This document shows positions 38,439 through 52,816 of a DNA stretch of 64,000 nt, one piece after another (position 1 is the stretch's first letter; each line of letters opens with the position of its first letter). A program made the position numbers and the translations under genes. The DNA is taken from contig JBKAGP010000001.1 of NCBI GenBank assembly GCA_046290465.1, positions 5,824,001-5,888,000 on the forward strand. The letters run 5' to 3'. Under the pieces are notes generated by a model. That model had not been told where the DNA came from, made no database searches, and worked only from the letters and a program-made list of their open reading frames with translations. The stretch comes from Planctomycetota bacterium. GTDB taxonomy: Bacteria > Planctomycetota > UBA1135 > UBA2386.

Positions 38439-39190
38439 GCGTGGCCCTCCGCCCGGCCGGACGCAGTCATCTTGCGGTCGTTCTCAATCAGCTTCTCGAC
38501 CTCGCCGTCCTTCAGCCACAGCGTGCGGTCGGCGCGTTCGGCGACCGCCGGGTTGTGCGTGACCATCACGATCGTGACGCCGTCGGGGCGCAGGTCGTCG
38601 AACAGGTCGAGGATCTCGCTCTCGGTGTTGCTGTCGAGGTTGCCGGTCGCCTCGTCGGCGAGCAGGAACAGCGGGTCGTTCATCAGCGCGCGTGCGATCG
38701 CGACGCGCTGCTGCTGGCCGCCGGACAGCTCGAGCGGCTTGTGCTCGAGGCGCTGGCCGAGGCCGACGCGGTCGGCCAGGTACTCGGCCTTCTTGCGCGA
38801 TTCGGGGCCCACGCGTCCCTGGTAGAACAGCGGCACCTCGAGGTTCTCGAGCACCGTCAGCTGCGGGATCAGGTTGAACGACTGGAAGATGAAGCCGATC
38901 TCGGTGCCGCGCACGTTGGAGAGCGCGTCGTCGTTGAGCTTGCTGACGTCGCGGCCACCGACGCGATACTCGCCGGTGGTGGGGCGGTCGAGGCAGCCGA
39001 GCAGGTTGAGCATGGTGCTCTTGCCGGAGCCCGAACGGCCCATGATCGTCAGGTAGTCACCGCGGTGGACCTGCATCGACACGCCGTTGAGGGCGCGCAC
39101 GACGTTGTCGCCCATCTTGTAGTGGCGGTGGACGTCGACGAACTCGGCGATGATCTCGCTGCTGTTGCTGGCGGGGTCGCTCACGAGCAC
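38435..39190 (-). CDS. MacB/LolD-type ABC transporter ATP-binding protein
   Basis: GRSGSGKST, LSGGQQQRVAIARAL, LLADEATGNLD and VTH. Confidence 0.95.
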   Translation of the reverse strand: MLVSDPASNSSEIIAEFVDVHRHYKMGDNVVRALNGVSMQVHRGDYLTIMGRSGSGKSTMLNLLGCLDRPTTGEYRVGGRDVSKLNDDALSNVRGTEIGFIFQSFNLIPQLTVLENLEVPLFYQGRVGPESRKKAEYLADRVGLGQRLEHKPLELSGGQQQRVAIARALMNDPLFLLADEATGNLDSNTESEILDLFDDLRPDGVTIVMVTHNPAVAERADRTLWLKDGEVEKLIENDRKMTASGRAEGHA

Positions 39191-41289
39191 TACTCTCCGC
39201 CTCGCCGGTCGCCGCCACCGCCCGGGCCGCCGCCGCCGGGGCCACGGCCACCGCGCCCGCCGCGGCTGCCCATCGCCTTGCGCATCGCATCGCTGAGCTT
39301 CTGCGCCTCGTCGAGCTTGCCGTTGTCGATCGCGCTGATGATCGCCTTGAGCTTCTGCGTCGACTTCTCGAGCTGCTCACCGCTGAGGTAGTTGCTCATG
39401 TTGCCGATCGTGCTCACCAGGCGTGCCTTGGCCTCGCCGAGCTCCTCGGCCGACATCTCCGGGTACTTCTTGCGCGGGCCGCCGCGACGGCTGCCGCCGC
39501 GCTCCCGGCCGCCCCGCTGGCCGTCGCCGCGCTCGGTCTCCTTGGTGAGCTGGTCGCCGCTCGGCTTCTTGACCGGCGCCGGCTCCGGCGCCGCGGGCTG
39601 GTCGAACTTCGGGTCGGCCTGGCCGCCCGGCGGCGTGCGGTAGATCTGGTCGCCTTCGGTGAGGCCCTCTTCGACGACGACCTTCTCCTGGTTGTTGGCG
39701 CCGACCTGGATCGCGACGGCGACCGGGCCGTCGGCCGTCTCCTTCCAGACGTAGTTGACGGCGCGGTCGCGCCGCACCGCCTGGATCGGGATCGTCAGCA
39801 CGTTCGGCACCGTGTCGACGGTGATCGTGGCGGCGGCCTTCATGCCGGCCTTCAGCGACTCGTCGCGGTTGATGCCGTCGAGCATCACCTCGGTGGTGTA
39901 GACCTTCTTGTCGTTGCCGGACCAGCGGCTGGCCGAGTCGGCGACCGGTGCGACGTAGGTCACGCGGCCGGTCAGGATCTCGTTGGGGCGGACCTCGGCG
40001 CTGATGTGCGCGGGCATGCCGCGACGCACCTTCTCGACCATCGCCTCCTGCACCTTGATCTTGCACTTCAGCCGGCTGTTGTCCGGCAGGATGATGATCG
40101 TCTGGTACTGGCGCACGCTGGTGCCCTCCTCGACCGGTTCGCTGTCGCCGCGGCCGCGGGACACCTTCGAGTAGACCACCAGGCCCTCGCCGGGCGAGTA
40201 GATCACCGAGTTGTCGATCTGGCGGTTGAGCGTCGACAGACGGTCGCTCGCGATCTCGAACTCCTTCTGCTTGGCGTCGATGTCGAACTGCGAGTTCTTG
40301 CGCTCGGCGTCGTTCTTCGCGGTGACGCGTGCGACCTCGAGTTCGGCGTTCTCGAGGTTCTGCCGCATCTCGATCTTGTCGCGCTGCAGCGTGTAGTTGA
40401 TCAGCAGCTCGAGGTCGTTCCACGCGATCGTGACCTTCGACGCCTGGCTCTGGAACGCCAGTACGTCGCGCTCGAGCTCGTTGCGGGTGATGAACTGCTT
40501 GCTGGCGAGGCGGCGGCTGTGGGCGGCCGTGTCCTCCTTGACCTTCAGGTCCGCCATCGCGAGGCGGATCGTGTCGGCCTGCTGCAGGATCTTGTTGGCC
40601 ATCTCGCCCATGTCGCGCTGCAGCGGGTCGCCCGCTTCGCCGTCGACGGTCAGCAGCGTGCGCACCTTGGGGATCAGGCCGGCGTAGTTCTGCGGATGCA
40701 CGTGCGCGACCAGCTGCGAGCCCTCGGTCGCCGCGGCGATGGTCGTGCCCTGGCCCTCCTTCGGCTCCGGCGGATTCACCAGCTCCTCGAGGCGCTTGAC
40801 CATGTCGGCGTTCTTGCCCTCGGAGCCCTGGCCGTCCTTGGCGCCCAGCAGCTTCTGCAGCTCCATCGCGGAGATCTGGCGCTGCGACTCGGCCGTGTTC
40901 AGGTTGGCTTGCAGCTCCTTCTCGAGGATCTCCTGCGCGGTGCGCGCCTGCTCGAGCGCGTTGCGCGCCTTCTCGACCGAGATCTCCTGCGTGGCGCGCT
41001 TCTCGACCAGCTCGGTGACGTCGAGCTCGACCAGCTTGTCGCCCTTCTTGACCAGGGTGCCTTCGGGGATCAGGCTCAGGATCGTGGCGCTGCCTTCGAT
41101 CTGGGACTTGACCTCGACCTCGTTGACGGCGACGAGCTCGCCGCCCTCCTTGACGTTGATCGGCAGGTCTTCGCGGCTCACCTTGTAGAGGTTGACGCGG
41201 TTGTCGGACTTCGTCTCGTTCCCGCCGCACGCCGCGAGCATCGCGGCGGTGGTCAGGAGGAAGGCGACGTGGTTCGTGCGGGAACGCAT
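39190..41289 (-). CDS. Efflux periplasmic adaptor (MacA/HlyD-like) lipoprotein, elongated
   Basis: Lipobox LAAC, EG..VKKGD.LVELD, IYSPGEGLV, LK.GM.A and GL.EGD. Gly/Arg-rich tail. Confidence 0.88.
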   Translation of the reverse strand: MRSRTNHVAFLLTTAAMLAACGGNETKSDNRVNLYKVSREDLPINVKEGGELVAVNEVEVKSQIEGSATILSLIPEGTLVKKGDKLVELDVTELVEKRATQEISVEKARNALEQARTAQEILEKELQANLNTAESQRQISAMELQKLLGAKDGQGSEGKNADMVKRLEELVNPPEPKEGQGTTIAAATEGSQLVAHVHPQNYAGLIPKVRTLLTVDGEAGDPLQRDMGEMANKILQQADTIRLAMADLKVKEDTAAHSRRLASKQFITRNELERDVLAFQSQASKVTIAWNDLELLINYTLQRDKIEMRQNLENAELEVARVTAKNDAERKNSQFDIDAKQKEFEIASDRLSTLNRQIDNSVIYSPGEGLVVYSKVSRGRGDSEPVEEGTSVRQYQTIIILPDNSRLKCKIKVQEAMVEKVRRGMPAHISAEVRPNEILTGRVTYVAPVADSASRWSGNDKKVYTTEVMLDGINRDESLKAGMKAAATITVDTVPNVLTIPIQAVRRDRAVNYVWKETADGPVAVAIQVGANNQEKVVVEEGLTEGDQIYRTPPGGQADPKFDQPAAPEPAPVKKPSGDQLTKETERGDGQRGGRERGGSRRGGPRKKYPEMSAEELGEAKARLVSTIGNMSNYLSGEQLEKSTQKLKAIISAIDNGKLDEAQKLSDAMRKAMGSRGGRGGRGPGGGGPGGGGDRRGGE

Positions 41290-41291
41290 GT

Positions 41292-42896
41292 TTATTCGGC
41301 GCTGGCCGGCATCGGCAGGGTCAGGTCGAACCGCAGCCCCTGGGGGGAGAGGCGCACGGCTTCGAGGTCGTTCATGAGTTGCAGGCGCGCGATCGCGTAA
41401 TCGACGATCGCGGCGTTGCGGTTGAGTTGGGCGCTGAGCAGCGAATCCTGCGCGTCGAGCTTGTCGAGCGCGGGCACGCGGCCGGCGGCGTAGAGGTCGG
41501 TGGTCGCTTCGACGCGCTGCTCGGCGAGGTCGACCGCAACCGTCTGGATCTCGAAGCTGTCGAGCGCCGCCTGGATGTTGCGCAGCGAACGGCGCACGTT
41601 GGCGGTCAGCGTGTCCTCGGCCTGTTCGCGCGCCCGCAGCGTGCGGTCGAACGTGATCAGCTGGCTGCGGTAGGCGTTGCGCAGCGGGATGCGGTCGAGG
41701 AACAGGTTGAGGTCGACGCCGGCCGACCAGTCGATCTGCGACCAGTCGAGGTTGAGGCCAGCGCCTTCTTCGGAGGGCACCGAGATCGCGGCGGTGAAGT
41801 CGAGGCCGAAGTTGAGCGCGTTCTCGGCGATCAGCACGCGGCGGCCGACGTCGGCGACCTCGTCGATGGTCGTCTGGTAGTCGTAGCGGCGACGCAGCGC
41901 CAGGCGCACGGCCGTGTCCTGGTCGAGGTCGACCTCCTGCACGCCCTGGTCGACCAGGCGCTTCAGCTCCTCGGGGTCGAGGGTGATCTGCGCGGTCACC
42001 GGCAGGCCGAGCGTCAGCTTGAAGCTGTCGAGCGCGTTCTGCAGGCGGTTGGCGGAGCTGACCCGCTGGGCGTCGGCGCTGTACTCACTCTGCTGCGCGC
42101 GACCGAGGTCGACGATCGTGCGGCGGCCGGCGTTGTAGAGCTCCTCGATCTGTTGGCGCGACAGCCGGAAGCTGCTGTAGTTGGCCTCGACGTTGTTGAG
42201 GTCGGCCATCTGCTGCACGACGTTCCAGTAGTCGGCGACCAGGTCGATCGCGAACTGCGAACGGAAGCGCTCGAAGTCGCGGATCGCGTAGATGACGTTG
42301 CGCTCGGCCTGGGTCAGCGGCTCGCGCGCGATGTGGCGGCCGGCGCCGCGCAGCAGCGGTTGGGTGACGGTCAGGTTGAGGATCGAGCCACCGTCGAACT
42401 GGCCGCCGTTGAGCACGCCGCGCAGGAACGTCTGCACGAAGCTGGTCACGATCGACGTGCCGGCCGGGGTGTCGGCCGAGGCGGCCAGGTCGTCGCTCAG
42501 CGAGACGTCCGCGGCGGTGTCCGAGGTGCCGTCGACGTTGGCGCTGAAGCCGCCGCCGAAGCGCACGCGGAAATCGTTGAGCGTCGTCGTCAGGCTGAGC
42601 GCCGCCAGGTAGAGGGTCTCCTTCTGGCGCTGGAACTCACGGCTGTTCTCGGCGGCGACGTCGAGCGCGTCGGCGAGCGACAGCTGGATCGGTTCGCGGG
42701 TGGTCAGCAGGCGCCGGCGCAGCGTGTCGACCGGCCGCTCGACGACGAACTCGCGCTGTTCGCCGAGCACCTGCTCGGTGGCCTTCTCGAGCACGCCGTA
42801 GACGGCGCGGTCGGCCCACTCCCGGTTGCCTTCGGGAGAGTAGCAGGAGGCCACCGCGATGACGGTGACGAACGGGAGGATGCGGGATGCGTGCAA
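41292..42896 (-). CDS. TolC-family outer membrane factor lipoprotein
   Basis: Lipobox-like VASC, LSLADALDVA, TVTQPLLRG and two OEP-like repeats (LYNAGR and LYAAGR). Start estimated. Confidence 0.85.
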   Translation of the reverse strand: MHASRILPFVTVIAVASCYSPEGNREWADRAVYGVLEKATEQVLGEQREFVVERPVDTLRRRLLTTREPIQLSLADALDVAAENSREFQRQKETLYLAALSLTTTLNDFRVRFGGGFSANVDGTSDTAADVSLSDDLAASADTPAGTSIVTSFVQTFLRGVLNGGQFDGGSILNLTVTQPLLRGAGRHIAREPLTQAERNVIYAIRDFERFRSQFAIDLVADYWNVVQQMADLNNVEANYSSFRLSRQQIEELYNAGRRTIVDLGRAQQSEYSADAQRVSSANRLQNALDSFKLTLGLPVTAQITLDPEELKRLVDQGVQEVDLDQDTAVRLALRRRYDYQTTIDEVADVGRRVLIAENALNFGLDFTAAISVPSEEGAGLNLDWSQIDWSAGVDLNLFLDRIPLRNAYRSQLITFDRTLRAREQAEDTLTANVRRSLRNIQAALDSFEIQTVAVDLAEQRVEATTDLYAAGRVPALDKLDAQDSLLSAQLNRNAAIVDYAIARLQLMNDLEAVRLSPQGLRFDLTLPMPASAE

Positions 42897-43035
42897 GGTC
42901 AGGACAGGCTCGGCGAACGATCTTGGGACGACCGTAGTAGGTCTGGCCCACTGTTTTTTCTCCCCTCGCCGAGGTGTGTTACTACGATACGACGCGTTGC
43001 GAACCGGTCCGGGCGGGCCATGGAGCAGCGGGGGC

Positions 43036-43740
43036 ATGCTGAGCATCTTGATCACCGCGGGACCGACCCGCGAACACCTCGACGACGTTCGATTCCTGAG
43101 CAATGCAAGCTCGGGACGAATGGGCTGTGCGCTGGCCGAAGCGGCCATGGCAGCAGGCCATCGCGCCACGATCGTGCTCGGCCCGGTCGAGGTCACGCCG
43201 CCCGCCGGCGCCGCCGTCCGTTCGGTCACCTCCGCGCTCGAGATGCAGGCTGCCGCTGCGGACGTATTCGCGACATCCGACATCGTGATCGCCGCGGCGG
43301 CCGTCTCCGACTGGCGGCCGGTGGCGCGCGCTGCCGGCAAGCCGGCGCGCCAACCCGGCCGCATCACGGTCGAGTTCGAGCCCAACCCCGACATCGTCAA
43401 GGGCCTGGCTGCGAACAAGGGTGACCGGATCGTGTTCGGCTTCGCCCTCGAGTCGGTCTCCGCGGGCATGCCCGCGGCGATCGAACGCGGTCGTCGCAAG
43501 ATCGTCTCCAAGGGGCTGGATGCCGTGGTCGTGAACCTGCACGACACCATCGGCAGCGACCAGGCCGAGTTCGTGCTGTGCTACGCCGACGGGCGCGAGC
43601 AGCCGTTGCCTCGCTGTGACAAGCGCCAGGCGGCGGAACTGCTGGTGCGCGCCGCGGTCGAGGCGTGGCAGGCGCAGAACGGTTCCGAACCGGGTCGACC
43701 GAACGGGACCAGCAGTCCACCAGAGGACCTACTCAAGTGA
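43036..43740 (+). CDS. coaB: Phosphopantothenate-cysteine ligase (stand-alone CoaB domain)
   Basis: ILITAGPTRE.LD.VRFLSN.SSGRMG, AAAVSDW, NPDI and GFALE. No CoaC domain. Confidence 0.85.
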   Translation: MLSILITAGPTREHLDDVRFLSNASSGRMGCALAEAAMAAGHRATIVLGPVEVTPPAGAAVRSVTSALEMQAAAADVFATSDIVIAAAAVSDWRPVARAAGKPARQPGRITVEFEPNPDIVKGLAANKGDRIVFGFALESVSAGMPAAIERGRRKIVSKGLDAVVVNLHDTIGSDQAEFVLCYADGREQPLPRCDKRQAAELLVRAAVEAWQAQNGSEPGRPNGTSSPPEDLLK

Positions 43741-46406
43741 GCAGAAAGAAGGACCACGAGGCCGAAGCGGCCCCGAAGCGCGGCACGCGCTTCGTCCCCA
43801 CCGAGGACGTGCCGCTGCCCGGCCTGTCGCCGCGCGCCCGCGAAGTGGTGGCGTTGGCGCTCTGCGGCGTCGCGCTCTACTCGATGCTGTGCCTGGCGAC
43901 GTTCCGGATGGCGGATCTCGACGGCGCGATCCCGACCGGCGGCATGCAGAACCTCGGCGGCTCGTTCGGCTACTACCTGGCGATCGGGTTCACGCGTGCG
44001 CTCGGGCTCGCCGGCTGGGTGCCGTTCCTGATGCTGCTGGCCTACGCGCTGCTGATGTTCCTCGGCCGCAGCTGCAGCCGCCTGACCATCAAGCTGCTCG
44101 GCATCGTCTGCTTCTCGGCGATGCTGGCGATCCTGTTCGCCGGCCACGACGGCCTCGCGGGCGTGCGAGACGCGACCCCGTACGGCGCCGGTGGCGTGTT
44201 CGGCTCGGTGGTCTCGCCCAAGCTCTACTCGGCCTTCGGCGGCACGGGCCGCGTGCTGATCCTGGTGTTCGGCGCGCTGGTGTCGCTGCTGATCGCGACC
44301 GAGTGGATGTTCTCCGAGCTGCTGCTGCGCGCCTACGCGGCGATCGAGCCGCCGGTGCGCCGCTGGTTCGGACGTGCGGTCGTCGCCGGCATCGGCGAGG
44401 TCGAAGAGCTCGAGGAGGAGGCCGAGGCCAAGCCGAAGCGTCGTCGTTCGCGCAAGAAGCCGGTCGCCGAGGAGGTCGAGGAGCCGGAGGAAGAGGTCGA
44501 GGAGGAAGAAGAAGAGGAAGAGGTCGAGGAAGAGGAGGAGGCCGAAGAAGCAGAGGAAGAAGAGGCCGAGGAGGAGGAAGAGGACGAGGAAGAGGCAGAT
44601 GAAGAAGAAGAGGAGGAGCCGGCGCCGAAGGCCCGCCGTTCGCGCAGTGGCCGCAAATCGCGCAAGGCGGCGGCAGAGGAGTCGGAGCCCGAGCCCGAGC
44701 CCGAGCCCGAACCGGAACCGCCCAAGCCCAAGCCGATCGTGATCGTGCGGCCGAAGCCGCGCAAAAAGCGCAAGAAGGTCGCGGCGCAGAGCACGCTGCC
44801 GTTCCAGGACTACCCGTTCCCGCCGATGGAGCTGTTCCAGGAGCCGCAGATGGGCGACCTCGGCGCGACCTCGGAGGTGCTCGAGAAGGGCGGTGCCGCG
44901 ATCGTCAACAAGCTCGCCAACTTCAAGATCGAGGCGCAGGTGGTGGCGGCGTCGGTCGGCCCGGCGGTCACCCAGTACGAGCTGCGGCTCGCCGAGAGCA
45001 TCCGCGTCAACAAGATCGTCGGCTTCGAATCGGACCTCGCGGCGGCGCTCAAGGCCTACTCGGTGCGCGTGGTCGCGCCGATCCCGGGCAAGGACACGGT
45101 CGGCGTCGAGGTTCCCAACGAGGAGCGCGAGAAGGTCTACATGCGCGACCTGCTCGACATGTTCGGCCGCGCCGACGACCATGCGATCCCGCTCTACCTC
45201 GGCAAGGACGTCGCCGGCAACCCGATCGTCGAGGACCTGGCGCGCATGCCGCACCTGCTGATCGCCGGCACCACCGGGTCCGGCAAGTCGGTCTGCATCA
45301 ACACGATCCTGCTGTCGGTGCTGATGACCCGCACGCCGCAGCAGGTCAAGCTGATCCTGGTCGACCCGAAGATGGTCGAACTGCAGGCCTACAAGAAGGT
45401 GCCGCACCTCTGCTGCGAGGTCGTCACCAACATGAAGAAGGCGCCGGGCGTGCTGCAGTGGGCCGTCGACGAAATGGAGAATCGCTACGCGATGCTGTCG
45501 GCCGCGGGCGTCAACCACATCAAGAACTACAACCGCCTCGGCGAGACCGAGCTGGCCAAGCGGCTCGGCCGCGATCCGGACCCGGACCGCGTGCACCTGA
45601 GCTACATCGTGATCGTCATCGACGAGTTCGCCGACCTGATGAACGTCGCCGCGAACGAGGTCGAGGACCTGATCCAGCGCCTCGCGCAGAAGTCGCGCGC
45701 CGTCGGCATGCACGTGATCCTGGCGACCCAGCGCCCGTCCAGCGACGTGATCACCGGCATCATCAAGGCCAACCTGCCGTGCCAGATCGCGTTCAAGGTC
45801 AACCGCCGCATCGATTCGCGCGTGATCCTCGACGTCAACGGCGCCGAGAAGCTGCTCGGCCACGGTGACATGCTCTACATGCCGCCGGCGGGCGGCGCGC
45901 TGCTGCGTGCGCAGGGCACGTTCGTCTCCGACGAGGAGCAGCACGCGGTCGTGAAGTACCTCGAGGACCAGGGCCAGCAGCCGGCGTTCAACCCGGAGCT
46001 GATGCAGCGCCAGTCGAGTTCGCGGCCGTCCTCGGCCGACAAGGACGAGCGCTACCACGAGGCCGTCGAGGTGATCGTTGGCCAGCAGCGCGGCTCGGCG
46101 ACGCTGCTGCAGCGGGCGCTGTCGGTCGGCTACACGCGGGCGACGCGCCTGCTGGAGCTGATGGAGGACGACGGCATCGTCGGTCCGTTCGTCGGCTCGA
46201 AGTCGCGCGAGGTGCTGCTGACGCTCGAGGAGTGGCACGCGCGCCGCGAGGCCGAGGAGCAGGCTGCCGACGACGACGAATACGAGTACGTCGAGGTCGA
46301 GGAGGGCGAGGAAGTGGAGGTCGCCGACGGCGACGACGTCGGCGAGGAGGTCGAGGCCGACGCCGGCGAGGCCGTGACGGATCCGCAAGACGACGAGCGC
46401 GATTGA
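43737..46406 (+). CDS. ftsK: DNA translocase FtsK
   Basis: Multi-TM N-terminus, PIPGK..VGVEVPN, Walker A GTTGSGKS, DPKMVEL, IDEFADL, ATQRPS and gamma domain LLQRALSVGYTRA. Confidence 0.96.
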   Translation: MSRKKDHEAEAAPKRGTRFVPTEDVPLPGLSPRAREVVALALCGVALYSMLCLATFRMADLDGAIPTGGMQNLGGSFGYYLAIGFTRALGLAGWVPFLMLLAYALLMFLGRSCSRLTIKLLGIVCFSAMLAILFAGHDGLAGVRDATPYGAGGVFGSVVSPKLYSAFGGTGRVLILVFGALVSLLIATEWMFSELLLRAYAAIEPPVRRWFGRAVVAGIGEVEELEEEAEAKPKRRRSRKKPVAEEVEEPEEEVEEEEEEEEVEEEEEAEEAEEEEAEEEEEDEEEADEEEEEEPAPKARRSRSGRKSRKAAAEESEPEPEPEPEPEPPKPKPIVIVRPKPRKKRKKVAAQSTLPFQDYPFPPMELFQEPQMGDLGATSEVLEKGGAAIVNKLANFKIEAQVVAASVGPAVTQYELRLAESIRVNKIVGFESDLAAALKAYSVRVVAPIPGKDTVGVEVPNEEREKVYMRDLLDMFGRADDHAIPLYLGKDVAGNPIVEDLARMPHLLIAGTTGSGKSVCINTILLSVLMTRTPQQVKLILVDPKMVELQAYKKVPHLCCEVVTNMKKAPGVLQWAVDEMENRYAMLSAAGVNHIKNYNRLGETELAKRLGRDPDPDRVHLSYIVIVIDEFADLMNVAANEVEDLIQRLAQKSRAVGMHVILATQRPSSDVITGIIKANLPCQIAFKVNRRIDSRVILDVNGAEKLLGHGDMLYMPPAGGALLRAQGTFVSDEEQHAVVKYLEDQGQQPAFNPELMQRQSSSRPSSADKDERYHEAVEVIVGQQRGSATLLQRALSVGYTRATRLLELMEDDGIVGPFVGSKSREVLLTLEEWHARREAEEQAADDDEYEYVEVEEGEEVEVADGDDVGEEVEADAGEAVTDPQDDERD

Positions 46407-46511
46407 TCTTCCCGGCCGCTACTGCTTGTGGGCCCGACCGGCGAGCAGTAGATTCTGTCGCGTAGCGTCCGGTGGTGTCGGACGTAGAGCGCAACTGCCC
46501 GGGAGGGGCAC

Positions 46512-48596
46512 ATGACTGTGAATACGCTGGGCTCTGAATCCCGGCTCGGAGGCGATTCGTTCGCGCCGGGCTCGTCGCGTGGCTCGCGCACCGTCGCGGA
46601 GTGGCTGTGGCCGTTCCTGGTCGGAGGCGTCGCGCTGTTCTCGATCTCCGCGCTGTTCTACTACCACTTCCACCGCGCGGAACTCGAACCACAGAGCTTC
46701 CTGCAGCAGGTATTCGCCGGCCTCTACGACACCTTCGGGTGGGCGCCGTCGGTGGTGTTCTTCCTGCTGGTGTTCGCCTGGTCGCTGATCTGGTTCGTGA
46801 CCGGCGTGCTGGAGAAGCCGGTCTCGCGCGTCGTGCGCCTGCTGGTGATGGCGGTCATGCTCGGGGTGTTCTTGAACCTCGGCGACGGCGGCGTCGTCTC
46901 CGAACCGCACAAGGGCGCGTTCGGTGCCTGGTTGGCCGGCCGGCTGGTCGGCGCGATCGGCTACGTGCCGAGCCTGGTGATGGTCTGGGTGACGACGTTC
47001 GCGTCGCTGCTGCTGGCCACCGACTGGTTCTTTAGCGAGTGGTTCGAGCGCTCGCGCAAGGCGGCGACGTTCGAGGTCGGCGTCGAGGAGCAGGTCACCG
47101 ACCACCTGCGCGGCCTGTCCGAGATCGCCAACCGTCCGGAATCGACCGAGGCCGGCGCGGCCAGCGCCGCCGTGACGATCGACGCCGGCGACGCGCCCGC
47201 AGACGGAGCCGCGGTCGGCGCCGACGAGCAACGGGACGACGATGGCCCGGAGCGACAGGACGCCGCCGGCGGGGATCCTGCCGAGCCCGAAGCGGCTGCC
47301 GAGCCGGTCGTGCACGTCGAGCGACGCCTCAGCTACGCCGAACGACGGCGCCTGCGCGCCGAGCGCGATGCCGCCCAGGCCGAGCCGCCGGTGCCGGTGC
47401 CGCGCCCCGACCCGCAGCCGGCAGAGGAGCCGTCGTCCCGCCCCGATCCGGAGCCGGCGGAGCTGGCGCGCGCGGTCGGCTCTGCCCTCGACGAGCTGGC
47501 CGAGAACGCACAGGCGGGCGGCGCTGCGGTGTCCGAGGACGAGCTCGCGGGGCTGTTCGGAGACGCGTCCGCAACGGCCGAGGACGACGACGACGTGGTG
47601 GTGGTCGCGCCGGAGCACGTCGAGGCCGAGGAGATCGAACTGGTCGACGAGGACCCGGACGAGGACGAGGACGCCGAGGCCGTCGACGACGACGAGATCG
47701 CGGCGGACGAGATCGCCGAGGAAGGCGACGACGAGTCCGAGGACGCCGAGCTGGGTGAGCTCGACGAGGACGACGAATCGGACGACGCCGACGAGGACGA
47801 CGACGAGGAAGAGGAAGAAGAAGAGGACGAGGACTACGGCGAGGAGGACGTCGACGAAGACGACGAGGAGTCGGCGGAGCTCGAGTCGGACGACGACGAG
47901 GTCGAGGACGAAGAACTCGAAGACGAAGAGTTCGAGGACGAGGAACTCGACGACGACGACGACGACGAAGAAGAAGAAGAAGAAGAAGAAGAAGAAGAAG
48001 AAGAAGAAGAAGAAGAAGAGGAAGAGGACGAGGACGAGGACGAGGACGAGGAAGGCGAGTACGCGGAGTACGACGAGGACGAGGAACTCGAGGAAGGCGA
48101 CGAGGAGGAGGACGAGTCCGACGCGGACGATGCCGACGACTCGGGCGATGACGAAGTCGAACTCGAGGCCCAGCTCGACGACGAGGAGGCCGACGACGAG
48201 GAGGCCGACGAAGACGAGTTCGAGGCCGATGAGGACGACGACGACGACTTCGTCGAGTCGACGGCCGACGCCCCGACCGAACCCAAGGAGACCGTCGTCG
48301 CGATCCCGCGTCCGGACGAGATGCCCGAGCCGGTCCAGCCGACCCCACCGGTGAGCCCGGCTGCCCGCGCCGAAGCCGAGCCGCAGCCCGAGCCGTCGGC
48401 CCCTGGCCGCCAGCAGAAGCTGTTCGGCGGCGGCGTCGACGAGGACCTGCTGGTCGAGGCCCGCGAACTGCTGCGTTCGGGCCGACGGCCGACCGCAGCG
48501 CTGCTGCAGCGCAAGCTGCGCATCGACTACGAACTGGCGCAGGACGTGATCCACGAGCTGGAGGCGCGCGGGCTGCTGGCGGAAGACGAGGCGTGA
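46512..48596 (+). CDS. Motor-less FtsK-like protein (TM domain + acidic disordered tract + gamma domain)
   Basis: SLLLATDWFFSEW matches FtsK SLLIATEWMFSEL. C-terminal AALLQRKLRIDY.LA..V..ELE..GL. No Walker A/B. Confidence 0.82.
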   Translation: MTVNTLGSESRLGGDSFAPGSSRGSRTVAEWLWPFLVGGVALFSISALFYYHFHRAELEPQSFLQQVFAGLYDTFGWAPSVVFFLLVFAWSLIWFVTGVLEKPVSRVVRLLVMAVMLGVFLNLGDGGVVSEPHKGAFGAWLAGRLVGAIGYVPSLVMVWVTTFASLLLATDWFFSEWFERSRKAATFEVGVEEQVTDHLRGLSEIANRPESTEAGAASAAVTIDAGDAPADGAAVGADEQRDDDGPERQDAAGGDPAEPEAAAEPVVHVERRLSYAERRRLRAERDAAQAEPPVPVPRPDPQPAEEPSSRPDPEPAELARAVGSALDELAENAQAGGAAVSEDELAGLFGDASATAEDDDDVVVVAPEHVEAEEIELVDEDPDEDEDAEAVDDDEIAADEIAEEGDDESEDAELGELDEDDESDDADEDDDEEEEEEEDEDYGEEDVDEDDEESAELESDDDEVEDEELEDEEFEDEELDDDDDDEEEEEEEEEEEEEEEEEEEEDEDEDEDEEGEYAEYDEDEELEEGDEEEDESDADDADDSGDDEVELEAQLDDEEADDEEADEDEFEADEDDDDDFVESTADAPTEPKETVVAIPRPDEMPEPVQPTPPVSPAARAEAEPQPEPSAPGRQQKLFGGGVDEDLLVEARELLRSGRRPTAALLQRKLRIDYELAQDVIHELEARGLLAEDEA
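47949..48017 (+). repeat. (GAC)6(GAA)17 in-frame trinucleotide microsatellite
   Basis: Pure GAA run 47967-48017 preceded by a GAC run. Confidence 0.9.
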
Positions 48597-48705
48597 CCGC
48601 GCGCCGGCGCGCCCGGAATCCGGCCGCCGGGGTGCGAAAAGTGCGCGCGCATCCGATGCCTTCGGAGCGGCCTGCTGGTGGGGCTGCGCGTTCGTTCGTC
48701 CCCGC

Positions 48706-48736
48706 TTTCCCCAGGCTTGTCCACAGGGTGTCCACG
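48706..48736 (+). promoter_or_regulatory. DnaA-box-like cluster upstream of dnaB
   Basis: TTTCCCCAG (48706), TTGTCCACA (48717) and GTGTCCACG (48728), spaced at 11 bp. Confidence 0.55.
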
Positions 48737-48789
48737 GGTCGCAGCCTTGCGTCGGCGCGTGGGCACGGTAACTAGGACCGGCTCAGCGG

Positions 48790-50139
48790 ATGGTGGACTT
48801 CAAGCAGAACTTCGACGGCCGCGGCGTGCCGCAGAACCTCGACGCCGAGCGCTCGGTGCTCGGTGCGCTCCTGTTGCACACGGACGCCGTCGTCGACGTC
48901 ACGTTCCTCAAGCCCGACGACTTCTACCTGCCCAAGCACCAGCAGATCTTCCAGGCGCTGCTGACGGCCTACAACACGCGCACGGCGACCGACCCGATCG
49001 TCGTCGGCGAGGAACTCGACCGGCAGGGCAAGCTCGACGAGGTCGGCGGCCATGAGCAGCTGATGGACCTGATGGAAGGGGTCATCACGGCGGCGGGCGT
49101 CGTCTACCACGCCGAGATCGTGCGCGAGAAGGCGATCGCGCGCCGGCTGCTGGAGACCTGCCTCGACGTCGCGCGGCGCACCTACGACAACGAGAGCGAG
49201 GCCAAGGAGCTGCTCGACGAGGCGGAGCGCAAGATCTTCGAGATCTCGGGCATGGACAAGAGCGGCGACGCGGTCAGCATCGCCGACGTGCTGCAGCTGA
49301 CGTTCGAGAAGATCGACCGGCTGCGCGAGCGCGAGGGGCGCCTGACCGGCCACGCGACCGACTACTACGACTTCGACGACATGACCGGCGGCCTGCAGCC
49401 GGGCGAACTGGTGATCATCGCGGCGCGTCCGTCGATGGGAAAGACCACGTTCGCGCTCAACCTGACCGAGCGTGTCTCCAACCACGGCAAGGGCATCGCG
49501 TTCTTCTCGCTCGAGATGTCCAACCAGCAGGTCATCCAGAACATGCTCTGCTGCCGCTCGCAGATCGACGGTTCGGCGATGCGCAAGGGCCGGATCACCG
49601 ACCAGCAGTACAAGCGGCTGCAGGAGGAGGCGGCGAAGCTCTACGAGACGCCGATCTTCATCGACGATACGCCGGGCATCTCGATCACGCAGCTGCGCGC
49701 CAAGGCGCGCCGCCTGAAGCAGAAGCACGGCATCGACATGATCGTCGTGGACTACCTGCAGCTGATGACCGGCGGCGGCCGCTTCGAGAGCCGCCAGCAG
49801 GAGATCTCGGCGATCTCGCGTGGTCTGAAGAGCGTGGCGCGGGAGCTTTCCGTGCCGGTGTTGGCGCTGTCGCAGTTGAATCGTGACGTCGAGAACCGCG
49901 ATGATCACCGGCCGCGCATGAGTGACCTGCGCGAGTCCGGCGCGATCGAGCAGGACGCCGACGTGATCCTGCTGCTGCACCGTGACGACTACTTCAATCC
50001 GACCGAAGAGAACCGCGGCCTCGCCCAAGTCATCATCGCCAAACAGCGCAACGGCCCGACCGGTGAGGTCGCGCTGCGCTTCTTCCGCGAGTACATGCGA
50101 TTTGAGAACTACACGCGCAGAGCCGAGCCGATGCAGTAG
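48790..50139 (+). CDS. dnaB: Replicative DNA helicase
   Basis: AERSVLG, AARPSMGKT, FSLEM, VDYLQL, LSQLNR, DLRESGAIEQDAD and KQRNGPTG. Confidence 0.98.
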   Translation: MVDFKQNFDGRGVPQNLDAERSVLGALLLHTDAVVDVTFLKPDDFYLPKHQQIFQALLTAYNTRTATDPIVVGEELDRQGKLDEVGGHEQLMDLMEGVITAAGVVYHAEIVREKAIARRLLETCLDVARRTYDNESEAKELLDEAERKIFEISGMDKSGDAVSIADVLQLTFEKIDRLREREGRLTGHATDYYDFDDMTGGLQPGELVIIAARPSMGKTTFALNLTERVSNHGKGIAFFSLEMSNQQVIQNMLCCRSQIDGSAMRKGRITDQQYKRLQEEAAKLYETPIFIDDTPGISITQLRAKARRLKQKHGIDMIVVDYLQLMTGGGRFESRQQEISAISRGLKSVARELSVPVLALSQLNRDVENRDDHRPRMSDLRESGAIEQDADVILLLHRDDYFNPTEENRGLAQVIIAKQRNGPTGEVALRFFREYMRFENYTRRAEPMQ

Positions 50140-52816
50140 CGGAGCGGCCGCGCGTCTGCTCGCGGCCGCAGCGCTGTCGGTGGCCCTGTTCGCGGATGTG
50201 GCCATGGCGCAGCAGCCGGCCCCGCAGCAGCCGGCCCCGCAGCAGCCGCAGGGGCCGGGGGCCCGCGTCGATCGGCCGCTGCCGACGATCAGCGGCGAGC
50301 TGTACTTCGAGGCCGCCGTGCAGGCCTTGAAGGGCAAGTCCGTGCGTTCGATCCAGGTCACCAAGGCCGACCGGCAGAGCGCCTCGGTGACGCCGCTCGA
50401 CCAGGCCAGCGCCGAGTCGATCGTGCGCGGCCTCGAGACCCGCATCGGCCAGCCGTTCGAGCCGCGCAAGGTGTCGGCCGACTGCGCCGCGCTGTGGACC
50501 GAGCGGCGCCTGGTCGTGCGCGCCTACGCCGAGGAGGTCGACGGCGAGGTCGTCGTGACCTACCAGGTCGACCTGCAGGTCGAGCGCTACGAGAGCGTCG
50601 TGTTCGCCGGCCAGAAGCACCTCGAACTGCCCGAGATCTACGCGCTGATCGGCTACTACTCGGGCCGCCGCACGACCCGCACCGAGGCCGAGGCGATGCG
50701 CAAGCTGCTACTGGCGCGCTACCGGCGCGATGGCTACGCGTTCTGCAACATCCAGCTGGTCGACCTGCCCGCGTTCGACGACACGCCGACGCAAGAGGAG
50801 CTCGGGTCGCCGCGGCAGCGCCTGCGGATCCTGATCGAGGAAGGCCCGAAGGTGACGGTGCGCGACATCGACTTCGTCGGCAACCGGTCGTTCCCGGCGG
50901 ATCCGATCCTCGGCCTGTTCGGCACCGACAACTACCTGATCCGCGACGCGCGCATCGACAGCGACCCGGCGCGCGGCTTCGTGCGCGGCGGCGCGTTCAG
51001 CCGCGAGGTGCTCGAGGAGGACCTCGACCGGCTGCGCCTGTTCTACCGCAGCCGCGGCTTCCTGGAGGCGACCGTCGACCTCGCCGACGTGCGCTTCAGC
51101 GAGGACCGCACCAGCGTCGACCTGTCGTTCGTGATCGTCGAGGGCCCGCGCTACCGGATCCGTTCGGTCAAGGTGCAGCACGTCACCGTCGACCAGGAGC
51201 CGCTCGGCGTCGAGCCGCTGTATCCGGCGAGCGAGGTCGAGCAGGTGCTCAAGGTCGCACCCGGCGAGTTCTACGACCACGACCGGCTGCAGCGCGACCA
51301 GCTGAAGATCGAGGAGTTCTACGGCCGCCGCGGCCATCCGTCGGTCAGCTTCCCCGGCATGCGCCAGGCGCTGCGGCAGGGTTGTCGGGTGTTCACGCCG
51401 CTCGAGATCTACGCCGAGGGCCCCGAGGTCGACATCGTCTTCCAGGTCAGCGAGGGCTCGCCCAAGACGCTGCGCGACGTCGTGATTCGCGGCAACCGCT
51501 TCACGCGCGACCCGGTCATCCGGCGTCGCTTCCGGGTGCTGCCGGGCGAACGCATCGACATGCTCGAGGTGCGCCGGGCGCTACGGCGGATCGAGAACAC
51601 GCGGTTCTTCCAGGATCCGGTGACGCTGCAAGGGCCACGGCTGCAGCTGGAGCCGGTCGCGGGCGACCCCGACAAGGTCGACATCGGCCTCGACGTGCAG
51701 GACGGCCCGACCGGCGAACTGCGCTGGGGGGTCGGCATCTCGACCGGCATCGGCGCGCAGGCGCAGATCACCTTCAACAAGCGCAACTTCGACCTGTGGA
51801 ACCCGCCGAGCAGCGCCAACCCGATCACCGCGATCGAGGAGATCCTCGACGCCAAGGCGTTCCACGGCGGCGGCCAGAACCTGTCGATGCTGCTCGCGCC
51901 GGGTAGCCGGCAGAGCCAGTTCTCGATGACCTACGTCGAGCCCGACATCTTCGGCGACCACCTCGACACCTATGCGCTACGGATCACCGGCCAGCGCCGC
52001 ATCCGCCGCCTCCCCGACGGCTACACGTCCGACGTGCTCGGCGGCGAGGTCGGGCTGTCGCGCAACTTCACCGAGTTCTTCAATGCCGGCGTGTCGGTCC
52101 GCCAGGAGACCGTCGAGATCGACAGCCTGGCGCAGGACGCGACCCAGCTGGCGTTCGATGCCGAAGGCCAGACCGAGCTGCGCGGCGCGCGCATCAGCAT
52201 GCGCTACCGCGACTACGACGACCTGCTGCGGCCGACCGAGGGCGTCGACCTGGGGCTGTCGTTCGAGGTCATCGGCGGCCCGTTCGGGGCGGCCGAGGAC
52301 CTGACCAAGTGGGAGCACCGCGCCGACGTCTACCTGCCGATCGCCGAGAACGAGATGGGCCACCGCACGGTGTTCCACTGGCGGCAGTTCTTCGGCTACG
52401 CGCAGGAGTTCGGCGGCAGCGACGACGTGTTCCTGACCGAACGGTTCTACATGGGCGGCGGCAACCTGCGCGGGTTCGACTTCCGCCGCGCCGGCCCGAC
52501 GCAGTTCCAGCGGCCGCTCGGCGGCGAGGCGATCTACACGTCGAGCTACGAGGTCTACTTCCCGCTGGTCGCGACGCGGCTCGAGGGCGAGGTGCGCGAC
52601 CGCGAACTGCTGCGCTGGGTGGTGTTCACCGACATCGGCTTCCTCGGCCTCGGCCTCAGCGACCCGACCTTCGGTGAGATGCGCGCCAGCTCCGGCGTCG
52701 GCCTGCGCATCGAGATCCCGTACCTCGAACTGCCGATCGCGCTCGACCTCGGTTGGCCGTGGCTCTACGAGGAGTCGGACGACCGCCGCCAGCTCTACTT
52801 CTCGATCAGCCGATGA
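50102..52816 (+). CDS. BamA/Omp85 family outer membrane protein
   Basis: POTRA-like segments (IDFVGN, VIRGN.FTRD.VIRR), FYMGGGNLRGF and C-terminal LYFSISR. Start uncertain (TTG at 50102). Confidence 0.88.
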   Translation: MRTTRAEPSRCSSGAAARLLAAAALSVALFADVAMAQQPAPQQPAPQQPQGPGARVDRPLPTISGELYFEAAVQALKGKSVRSIQVTKADRQSASVTPLDQASAESIVRGLETRIGQPFEPRKVSADCAALWTERRLVVRAYAEEVDGEVVVTYQVDLQVERYESVVFAGQKHLELPEIYALIGYYSGRRTTRTEAEAMRKLLLARYRRDGYAFCNIQLVDLPAFDDTPTQEELGSPRQRLRILIEEGPKVTVRDIDFVGNRSFPADPILGLFGTDNYLIRDARIDSDPARGFVRGGAFSREVLEEDLDRLRLFYRSRGFLEATVDLADVRFSEDRTSVDLSFVIVEGPRYRIRSVKVQHVTVDQEPLGVEPLYPASEVEQVLKVAPGEFYDHDRLQRDQLKIEEFYGRRGHPSVSFPGMRQALRQGCRVFTPLEIYAEGPEVDIVFQVSEGSPKTLRDVVIRGNRFTRDPVIRRRFRVLPGERIDMLEVRRALRRIENTRFFQDPVTLQGPRLQLEPVAGDPDKVDIGLDVQDGPTGELRWGVGISTGIGAQAQITFNKRNFDLWNPPSSANPITAIEEILDAKAFHGGGQNLSMLLAPGSRQSQFSMTYVEPDIFGDHLDTYALRITGQRRIRRLPDGYTSDVLGGEVGLSRNFTEFFNAGVSVRQETVEIDSLAQDATQLAFDAEGQTELRGARISMRYRDYDDLLRPTEGVDLGLSFEVIGGPFGAAEDLTKWEHRADVYLPIAENEMGHRTVFHWRQFFGYAQEFGGSDDVFLTERFYMGGGNLRGFDFRRAGPTQFQRPLGGEAIYTSSYEVYFPLVATRLEGEVRDRELLRWVVFTDIGFLGLGLSDPTFGEMRASSGVGLRIEIPYLELPIALDLGWPWLYEESDDRRQLYFSISR

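Follow-up and report, generated by a model that had tools for sequence, protein, structure and literature searches.

A motor-less paralogue of FtsK encoded between ftsK and dnaB in a family of Planctomycetota, and its possible docking on the sliding clamp

What is left for an FtsK-like protein to do once the motor of the DNA translocase is gone? The question is raised by a gene in a 64,000-nucleotide stretch of a Planctomycetota genome (the window; positions 5,824,001 to 5,888,000 of contig JBKAGP010000001.1, GenBank assembly GCA_046290465.1), which lies between ftsK and dnaB and encodes a protein of 694 residues, here called X (46512..48596, + strand, delimited by its open frame and a family alignment; all coordinates are those of the window). 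A sequence-only reading of the window took X for an FtsK paralogue in which an acidic tract replaces the motor, acting as a passive membrane-to-chromosome tether or as a co-assembling regulator of FtsK, and proposed profile scans and a survey of the gene order in relatives. From the analysis described here, X is almost certainly a real motor-less FtsK paralogue. The explanation that is preferred, tentatively, is that it is a conserved and functional paralogue minus the alpha/beta motor, serving as a membrane-anchored adaptor beside FtsK whose C-terminal unit would dock on DnaN, the beta sliding clamp. Below, "family" denotes the GTDB family of the window, and "neighbouring FtsKs" are those encoded beside X-type genes.

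The N-terminal part of X is an FtsK-type membrane domain with four transmembrane (4-TM) segments (residues 28-187, 46593..47072, + strand), defined by profile-profile alignment with hhalign and by an AlphaFold2 (AF2) model. The resemblance, first noticed by eye, is detected by BLASTP, which aligns residues 19-184 of X with residues 52-226 of the neighbouring FtsK at 27% identity (E 2e-7), and an hhalign comparison of 24 X N domains with 22 FtsK 4TM domains of the same loci gives a probability of 96.7% (E 4.3e-10, 151 columns). The Pfam model FtsK_4TM (PF13491) scores X alone at E 0.19 (11.8 bits, under the cut-off of 23.1) and reaches E <= 0.01 in 8 of 31 relatives. In the AF2 model, which was built on 31 sequences, helices span residues 28-53, 63-75, 77-97, 103-123, 136-149 and 151-187, and the predicted local distance difference test (pLDDT) in 10-residue blocks across residues 31-180 is 75-97, mostly at least 85. 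A Foldseek search of the whole model against the Protein Data Bank returned no row at E <= 0.001, leaving the membrane domain without a solved counterpart.

The motor that follows in FtsK is absent from X. Neither FtsK_alpha (PF17854) nor the motor model FtsK_SpoIIIE (PF01580) matches X at E <= 1, a tblastn search with the FtsK motor as query finds the upstream gene as the sole match, and the one row from an NCBIfam scan of X is a chance match (E 0.78). As the sequence-only reading had described, low-complexity residues rich in aspartate and glutamate (D/E) take its place. X contains about 430 disordered residues, with a polyacidic core (residues 366-590, 47607..48281, + strand) recognized from composition, the Tandem Repeats Finder (TRF) program and a pLDDT below 50. 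These 225 residues are 71.6% D/E with not a single K or R and carry a net charge of -161; the pLDDT stays below 50 for nearly all of residues 350-601, except 401-403. The tract is encoded by GAC/GAG repeats, with TRF arrays at 47762-48247. Among 75 members of the X family, the linker varies from 145 to 442 residues in length, from 15 to 46% in D+E content and from -18 to -175 in net charge. A near-identical relative differs from the protein of the window mainly by in-frame insertions and deletions in the tract (P0004, 680 aa, against P0001, 694 aa, with identical N domains), which points to repeat slippage.

At the C-terminus stands a gamma-like domain (residues 643-692, 48438..48587, + strand), a three-helix winged-helix core lacking wing strands, identified by Pfam, profiles, AF2 and Foldseek. 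BLASTP of X against FtsK does not see the gamma similarity, and profiles are needed. The Pfam model FtsK_gamma (PF09397) matches X at residues 643-692 with E 1.8e-5 (24.8 bits, under the cut-off of 30.6) and all 31 aligned relatives at E <= 0.01 (best 1.2e-11). A profile of the X family retrieves the solved gamma chains 2ve8 and 2j5o at about 3e-10 (best 3.3e-10), 2j5p at 3.5e-8 and the XerD-gamma fusion 5dcf at 4e-7. AF2 places a three-helix domain at residues 644-685 with a pLDDT of 91-94, and Foldseek superposes the C-terminal domain on 2ve8, 2j5p and 2ve9 at 1.1-1.6 Å over 45-47 columns, the E-value being above 0.001 with the 694-residue query. The resemblance to FtsK gamma noticed in the sequence alone is thereby borne out. 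In the profile scans, the single X sequence stays below the Pfam cut-offs for both end domains; the family profiles and the relatives recover 4TM and gamma, and FtsK_SpoIIIE is absent. X thus shares with FtsK (of E. coli, P. aeruginosa and the upstream gene) a 4-TM N domain, a disordered acidic/proline-rich linker and a gamma fold with an ESRRAS/QRKL core. It differs in having no alpha or RecA-like motor, in replaced residues at the positions that read the FtsK-orienting polar sequences (KOPS), in lacking wing strands (in the subclade of the window), and in motifs of its own (GVExxVT, RRxSYxERRR, IPRP and RQQxLF).

The gene is widespread and intact in the family. The N domain, used as a query, retrieved 108 proteins, 107 of which belong to the X family (399-713 aa), 102 of these with a precomputed gamma match; their source names all point to Planctomycetota, with descriptions such as "hypothetical", "FtsK" and "ribosomal protein S25". 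By the N-domain profile, X is found in 78 of 91 family genomes, in 29 of the 31 of high quality and in 39 of 41 genera, which makes it a core gene of that family. All X carriers found are metagenome-assembled genomes. With the same profile at E <= 1e-5, no X was found in 19 sampled genomes of other families in the same order. The gene order recurs as well. From 53 loci in species-representative genomes, 51 were kept, L039 being dropped for lying on the same contig as L032, and L052 for consisting of FtsK itself and a distant paralogue. The ftsK motor lies upstream of X at 43 of the 51 loci (absent at L019, undecidable at seven) and dnaB lies downstream at 44 (absent at L042 and L044, undecidable at five), so that the order ftsK-X-dnaB holds upstream in 43 of 44 and downstream in 44 of 46 decidable loci.

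The ratio of nonsynonymous to synonymous substitution rates (dN/dS, omega), read from only the four closest of 528 locus pairs, is 0.03-0.27 for the X N domain, 0.07-0.28 for the C-terminal part of X and 0.07-0.14 for the FtsK N domain; in these close pairs X is thus under purifying selection. Across loci, N-domain identity is 35-77% for X and 50-81% for FtsK. In a tree of N domains, X and three related intermediates form one clade and the neighbouring FtsKs group with the FtsKs of other families (support 88-91). A recent duplication of the neighbouring FtsK was considered as the source of X and is rejected by these separate clades; the X/FtsK split is therefore old. With 17 open branches among the 45 inner ones and with seven very long branches, the tree lacks resolution at depth; it bears on this separation only, not on whether the paralogues share one origin. 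These data bear on the view that X is a decaying, functionless remnant of a tandem ftsK duplication. X does evolve faster than FtsK, and its acidic tract is a slippage-prone repeat; against this, 78 of 91 family genomes have an intact frame, the motifs are invariant, omega is low in close pairs, and the N-domain clade stands apart from the neighbouring FtsKs after an old split. Within the family, the outcome that would have undone the sequence-only reading, lack of the gene or its decay without purifying selection, is contradicted by the genome counts, motifs and omega values, and the remnant explanation is given scarcely any weight.

If X is functional, does its gamma domain read DNA? One of the two roles offered by the sequence-only reading implies so, with X as a passive tether whose gamma domain binds KOPS-like DNA directly. 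Residues were mapped through a tool alignment of X to E. coli gamma (2j5p), in which Q666 corresponds to Q1288, R667 to R1289, R670 to R1292, I671 to I1293, D672 to G1294, E674 to N1296, L675 to R1297, D678 to R1300, H681 to E1303 and E684 to E1306. The triple change R1300A/E1303A/E1306A renders E. coli FtsK KOPS-blind, according to the available part of PMC2680272. At the R1300 position, 108 X sequences have E in 47 cases, D in 42, R in three and K in one (D/E in 89 of 108); L predominates at the R1297 position, and the E1303 and E1306 positions are variable. In the neighbouring FtsKs, the positions of N1296, R1297, R1300, E1303 and E1306 are T, R, R, E and E in 45 of 45. R659, Q666, R667, R670, I671, D672 and Y673 are nearly invariant in X sequences. 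Most X members end in a wing-like ...GVVELEGDATQGRVL, and the subclade of the window ends directly after helix 3 without wing strands. As judged from these replaced recognition residues, X very probably does not read KOPS in this family. Retention of the gamma fold would suit a DNA tether; but a recognition helix with reversed charge, variable partner positions, missing wing strands and a domain of net charge -5 joined to a tract of net charge -161 speak against direct DNA binding. Tethering through KOPS-type reading thus finds no support in this lineage, where it is improbable; it has a better chance elsewhere in the phylum.

That better chance comes from genes of similar design in other families. 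Among 401 sampled genomes of the phylum, 378 have at least one match to Pfam gamma and about 94 (hand count) have two or more; ten of the latter, one per family, were examined, and in eight the second gamma lies 1.4-3 kb downstream of the first, just after ftsK, on the same strand and contig. No second gamma gene was found in the 20 genomes of f7, which is the largest family of near-complete genomes in the sample, with one gamma match each, and the family to which the model strain belongs also seems to be without the gene. The scan covered sixteen second-gamma genes: the three X-related intermediates and 13 genes of other families. All 16 match gamma and none matches the motor; nine give an FtsK_4TM match at E <= 0.01, of which three exceed the Pfam cut-off. 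Eleven of the 16 carry R or K at the R1300 position, and 14 carry D or E at the E1303 position. Since these genes keep R1300/E1303-type residues, it is plausible on sequence grounds that the ancestral paralogue read DNA and that the ability was lost in the family of the window. The N domains of the 13 distant paralogues match a family profile in ten cases, all ten best with the X profile, and match neither profile in three; nine of 11 matching distant FtsKs score best with the FtsK profile. The genes of other families (L057-L062, L064-L068 and others) are thus like X in their position after ftsK and in architecture, and unlike it in that most have an FtsK-like recognition helix and wing. At loci such as L058:4528-6330 and L059:4878-7073, the recognition helix (GYTRAARIIE, GYARATKFLE) is FtsK-like and followed by a wing, and these proteins may still bind DNA; at both loci, the two that were read, the downstream gene is one other than dnaB. 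Stand-alone FtsK_4TM clusters in the ESM Atlas also have an FtsK-type membrane domain and no motor; unlike X they list no gamma, are commonest in Actinomycetota, Campylobacterota and Bacteroidota, and, with scores below 0.9, serve as leads only.

If not DNA, what could the C-terminal unit of X bind? Ahead of the gamma-like domain lies the peptide RQQKLF (residues 633-638, 48408..48425, + strand), which has the form Q-x-x-L-F of a clamp-binding motif and was picked out by conservation, pLDDT and a docking model. The bacterial clamp-binding consensus is given as QL(S/D)LF in the available part of PMC9690074. Among the 102 members whose gamma anchor can be detected, 97 have Q..LF, as do two of the three X-related intermediates, and the motif lies 24-26 residues ahead of the LLQR anchor of gamma in 74 of 74 sequences measured. 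The AF2 pLDDT is below 50 at residues 624-636, around the motif. X resembles in this the clients of the beta clamp (Pol IV, Hda and others), which carry Q-x-x-L-F in disordered sequence. In the same genome, the C-terminal tail of a Pol IV-like open frame (L105:691-1968, - strand) contains QGSLF, which likewise has the Q-x-x-L-F form. No FtsK-derived integral membrane protein was found in the literature among known clamp clients.

The genome encodes one DnaN (L071:1501-2604), which was folded as a complex (27-sequence family alignment) with residues 590-694 of X (26-sequence alignment). The fold scores 0.61 (runs 0.62, 0.60 and 0.61), the best of three controls scoring 0.00; it passes a mark that 116 of 157 solved complexes reach, against two of 215 mismatched pairs, a calibration that is only rough for custom alignments. 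The partner pLDDT is at least 59 and the contact agreement at least 73%. On the X side, the predicted interface comprises residues 631-639 (PGRQQKLFG), 646 and 669-672; on the DnaN side it comprises 149-152, 171, 173-176, 244, 249, 280, 282, 320, 322, 345-348, 360 and 362-367, which we take to be the canonical peptide cleft and the C-terminal tail of E. coli beta. DnaN residues T171, G173, R174, R175, L176, P244, V249, M362, P363 and S365 are invariant in the 27-sequence alignment. In the predicted complex, the X-specific turn L-R-I-D (669-672, 48516-48527) also contacts DnaN; the corresponding FtsK residues are G for the D and A, S or G for the R. From motif and model together, X possibly binds DnaN, a proposition rated a little below even.

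A rival explanation takes up the second proposal of the sequence-only reading, a regulator of FtsK, and adds partners for the gamma head. X would then be a regulator or co-assembling subunit of FtsK, joined to it through the 4-TM domain, with a gamma head that contacts a XerC/D-type recombinase or the FtsK motor and tunes translocation or dimer resolution, and with a Q-x-x-L-F that binds a partner other than DnaN. The homology of the X N domain to that of FtsK and the position of the gene directly after ftsK fit such a role. According to the accessible portion of PMC5052618 (Table 1), E. coli gamma contacts XerD through Q1288, R1289, R1292, I1293, G1294 and N1296, with a critical R1289-E184 salt bridge; among 108 X sequences, the Q1288 position is Q in 97, R1289 is R in 105, R1292 is R in 104 and I1293 is I in 94. 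R670, at the R1292 position, is specific to X, the FtsKs of the phylum having A, S, G or E there, and the genome encodes two XerC/D-like recombinases (L072 and L073, 309 and 295 bits, XerD cut-off 329.6). The isolated gamma subdomain activates XerD, as stated in the part of PMC3130261 available. X is like this isolated activator in having a gamma fold outside the motor and four of the six XerD contacts kept, and unlike it in the changed G1294 and N1296 positions, which are D and E. The QR pair, moreover, is general to the gamma fold (kept in FtsK gamma in 45 of 45) and does not single out X, and a recombinase or motor contact leaves the fixed spacing of Q-x-x-L-F and the DnaN docking score unexplained. 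Regulation of this kind is considered unlikely; co-assembly with FtsK through the 4-TM domain is in itself plausible.

The explanation preferred here, docking of a membrane-anchored X on DnaN, can be put as a sequence of steps. The FtsK N domain self-assembles, and the 4-TM anchor would place X at FtsK's membrane site, possibly in mixed assemblies. The N domain and linker of E. coli FtsK have a role in division and contacts with divisome proteins, according to what is available of PMC12283558. On balance, X seems to act together with FtsK. The acidic tether would be a long, DNA-repelling spacer, beyond which the C-terminal unit (Q-x-x-L-F and the gamma-like domain at fixed spacing) would dock on DnaN, a step suggested by motif conservation and in-silico docking. 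In this role X would connect the FtsK site with the replisome or with freshly replicated, clamp-marked DNA, or else retain clamps at the membrane; it would not itself bind a DNA sequence. The closest parallel in function is CrfC, a clamp-binding protein of E. coli that keeps sister forks together.

Several observations weigh against this explanation. The Q..LF peptide is missing in five of 102 members, in two subclades, and the gene is kept; since these members keep the gene, clamp docking cannot be the sole function of the family. In the paralogues of other Planctomycetota families, the LF-type peptide is degenerate or lacking altogether. The docking score may reflect only the likeness of the modelled complex to the many solved clamp-peptide complexes. 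The X of the window falls, as a single sequence, under the Pfam thresholds for both 4TM and gamma. For distant pairs dN/dS is unreliable, as 70% GC compresses the synonymous sites; even for the FtsK N domain the median is 0.45. Expression is the last point: the RNA-type contigs that cover X are short (46479-46681, X19, and 47178-47332, X20, from metatranscriptomes; 47082-47269, X15, from a run whose RNA origin is a guess), none of those found bridges ftsK and X, and, DNA carry-over being possible, they are too weak for claiming expression of X or an operon.

FtsK itself carries a second clamp-binding-like motif. The peptide QSTLPF (44787..44804, + strand; form Q-x-x-L-x-F), noted for its conservation, lies in the FtsK linker just ahead of alpha and is preceded by a K/R/P-rich stretch. 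Q-x-x-L-P-F is exact in 34 of 39 family FtsKs; Q-x-L-P-F stands in three others, and the final residue is W or Y in the remaining two. The motif occurs in none of eight FtsKs of other families with a locatable alpha start. Homology between the pre-gamma module of X (VVAIPRP...RQQKLF) and the pre-alpha segment of FtsK (IVIVRPKP...QSTLPF) was considered and dropped, hhalign giving E 0.46 (local) and 0.93 (global) for a likeness seen by eye only. A bolder and rather doubtful extension is that the FtsK system is wired to the replisome: X, and perhaps FtsK through Q-x-x-L-P-F, would dock the clamp, and clamps on new DNA rather than KOPS would bring the chromosome to the membrane site of segregation or division. 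Gamma, in X, would have been co-opted as a second surface for contact with the clamp, an idea drawn from the contact of the L-R-I-D turn with DnaN in the model and from the fixed spacing of the motif.

Other parts of X are conserved to a similar degree. A juxtamembrane helix with a G-V-E..V-T motif (residues 190-206, 47079..47129, + strand; alignment and AF2 helix 191-206) has G190, V191, E192, V195, T196 and L202 invariant in 31 X sequences, and GVExxVT occurs in 72 of 76 members. Further along lies a basic helix, RRxSYxERRR (residues 270-290, 47319..47381, + strand; AF2 helix 275-290, pLDDT about 84), in which R278 and R279 are nearly invariant; the loose pattern as a whole matched only 39 of 76 members. 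The motif IPRP (residues 598-601, 48303..48314, + strand), seen in the alignment, is present in 76 of 76 members, with P599 and R600 invariant and I598 and P601 nearly so. SAL..YYH (at the end of the first transmembrane helix), W90, W94, G98, N122, LLATD and LLQRKLRIDY are further invariant or near-invariant features, as is RQQxLF.

The setting of the gene agrees with the sequence-only reading, which had placed it directly after ftsK and before dnaB; both neighbours are identified by Pfam. The upstream gene (43665..46406 from its predicted start, + strand) encodes a full-length FtsK DNA translocase comprising 4TM, acidic linker, alpha, motor, gamma and acidic tail (FtsK_4TM E 2.1e-19, FtsK_alpha E 8.8e-28, FtsK_SpoIIIE E 2.8e-59, FtsK_gamma E 7.9e-22). 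Its acidic linker (44487-44618) is 39% D/E over 149 residues with GAGGAA repeats, and its acidic tail beyond gamma (46225-46403) is 48% D/E over 61 residues. The downstream gene (48790..50139, + strand) encodes the replicative helicase DnaB (DnaB_C E 9.8e-106, DnaB E 2.8e-29). X starts with ATG, with the ribosome-binding site GGGAGG 6 nt upstream; 105 bp separate ftsK from X and 193 bp separate X from dnaB. No terminator-like sites were found on the + strand between ftsK, X and dnaB, and no sigma-70-like promoter across 43000-50500. Beyond dnaB follows a BamA-like gene (POTRA and Omp85; 49982-52816, + strand), whose listed frame overlaps the end of dnaB and whose true start probably lies later, and divergently upstream of ftsK lie genes for OEP and HlyD-type membrane-fusion proteins (39190-43550, - strand).

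What, then, would such a protein mean for these bacteria? No match to FtsZ was found in the genome itself (completeness 94%, one contig), and the division mode of FtsZ-less planctomycetes is still treated as an open question in the available parts of PMC12673574, PMC12283558 and PMC10632474. No description of a motor-less FtsK paralogue or of an FtsK-clamp link was found in the literature, in which those portions of the same three papers are included and subscription journals are thinly covered; the proposal that X is a candidate undescribed component holds to that extent, the paralogue being apparently undescribed. X is a derivative of the FtsK family whose architecture is new and whose partner may be new as well. 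Made from FtsK's anchor and tail and encoded beside ftsK in many uncultured lineages, it is a concrete candidate partner, and its docking on the clamp, if true, would be a direct link from replication to the segregation and division machinery.

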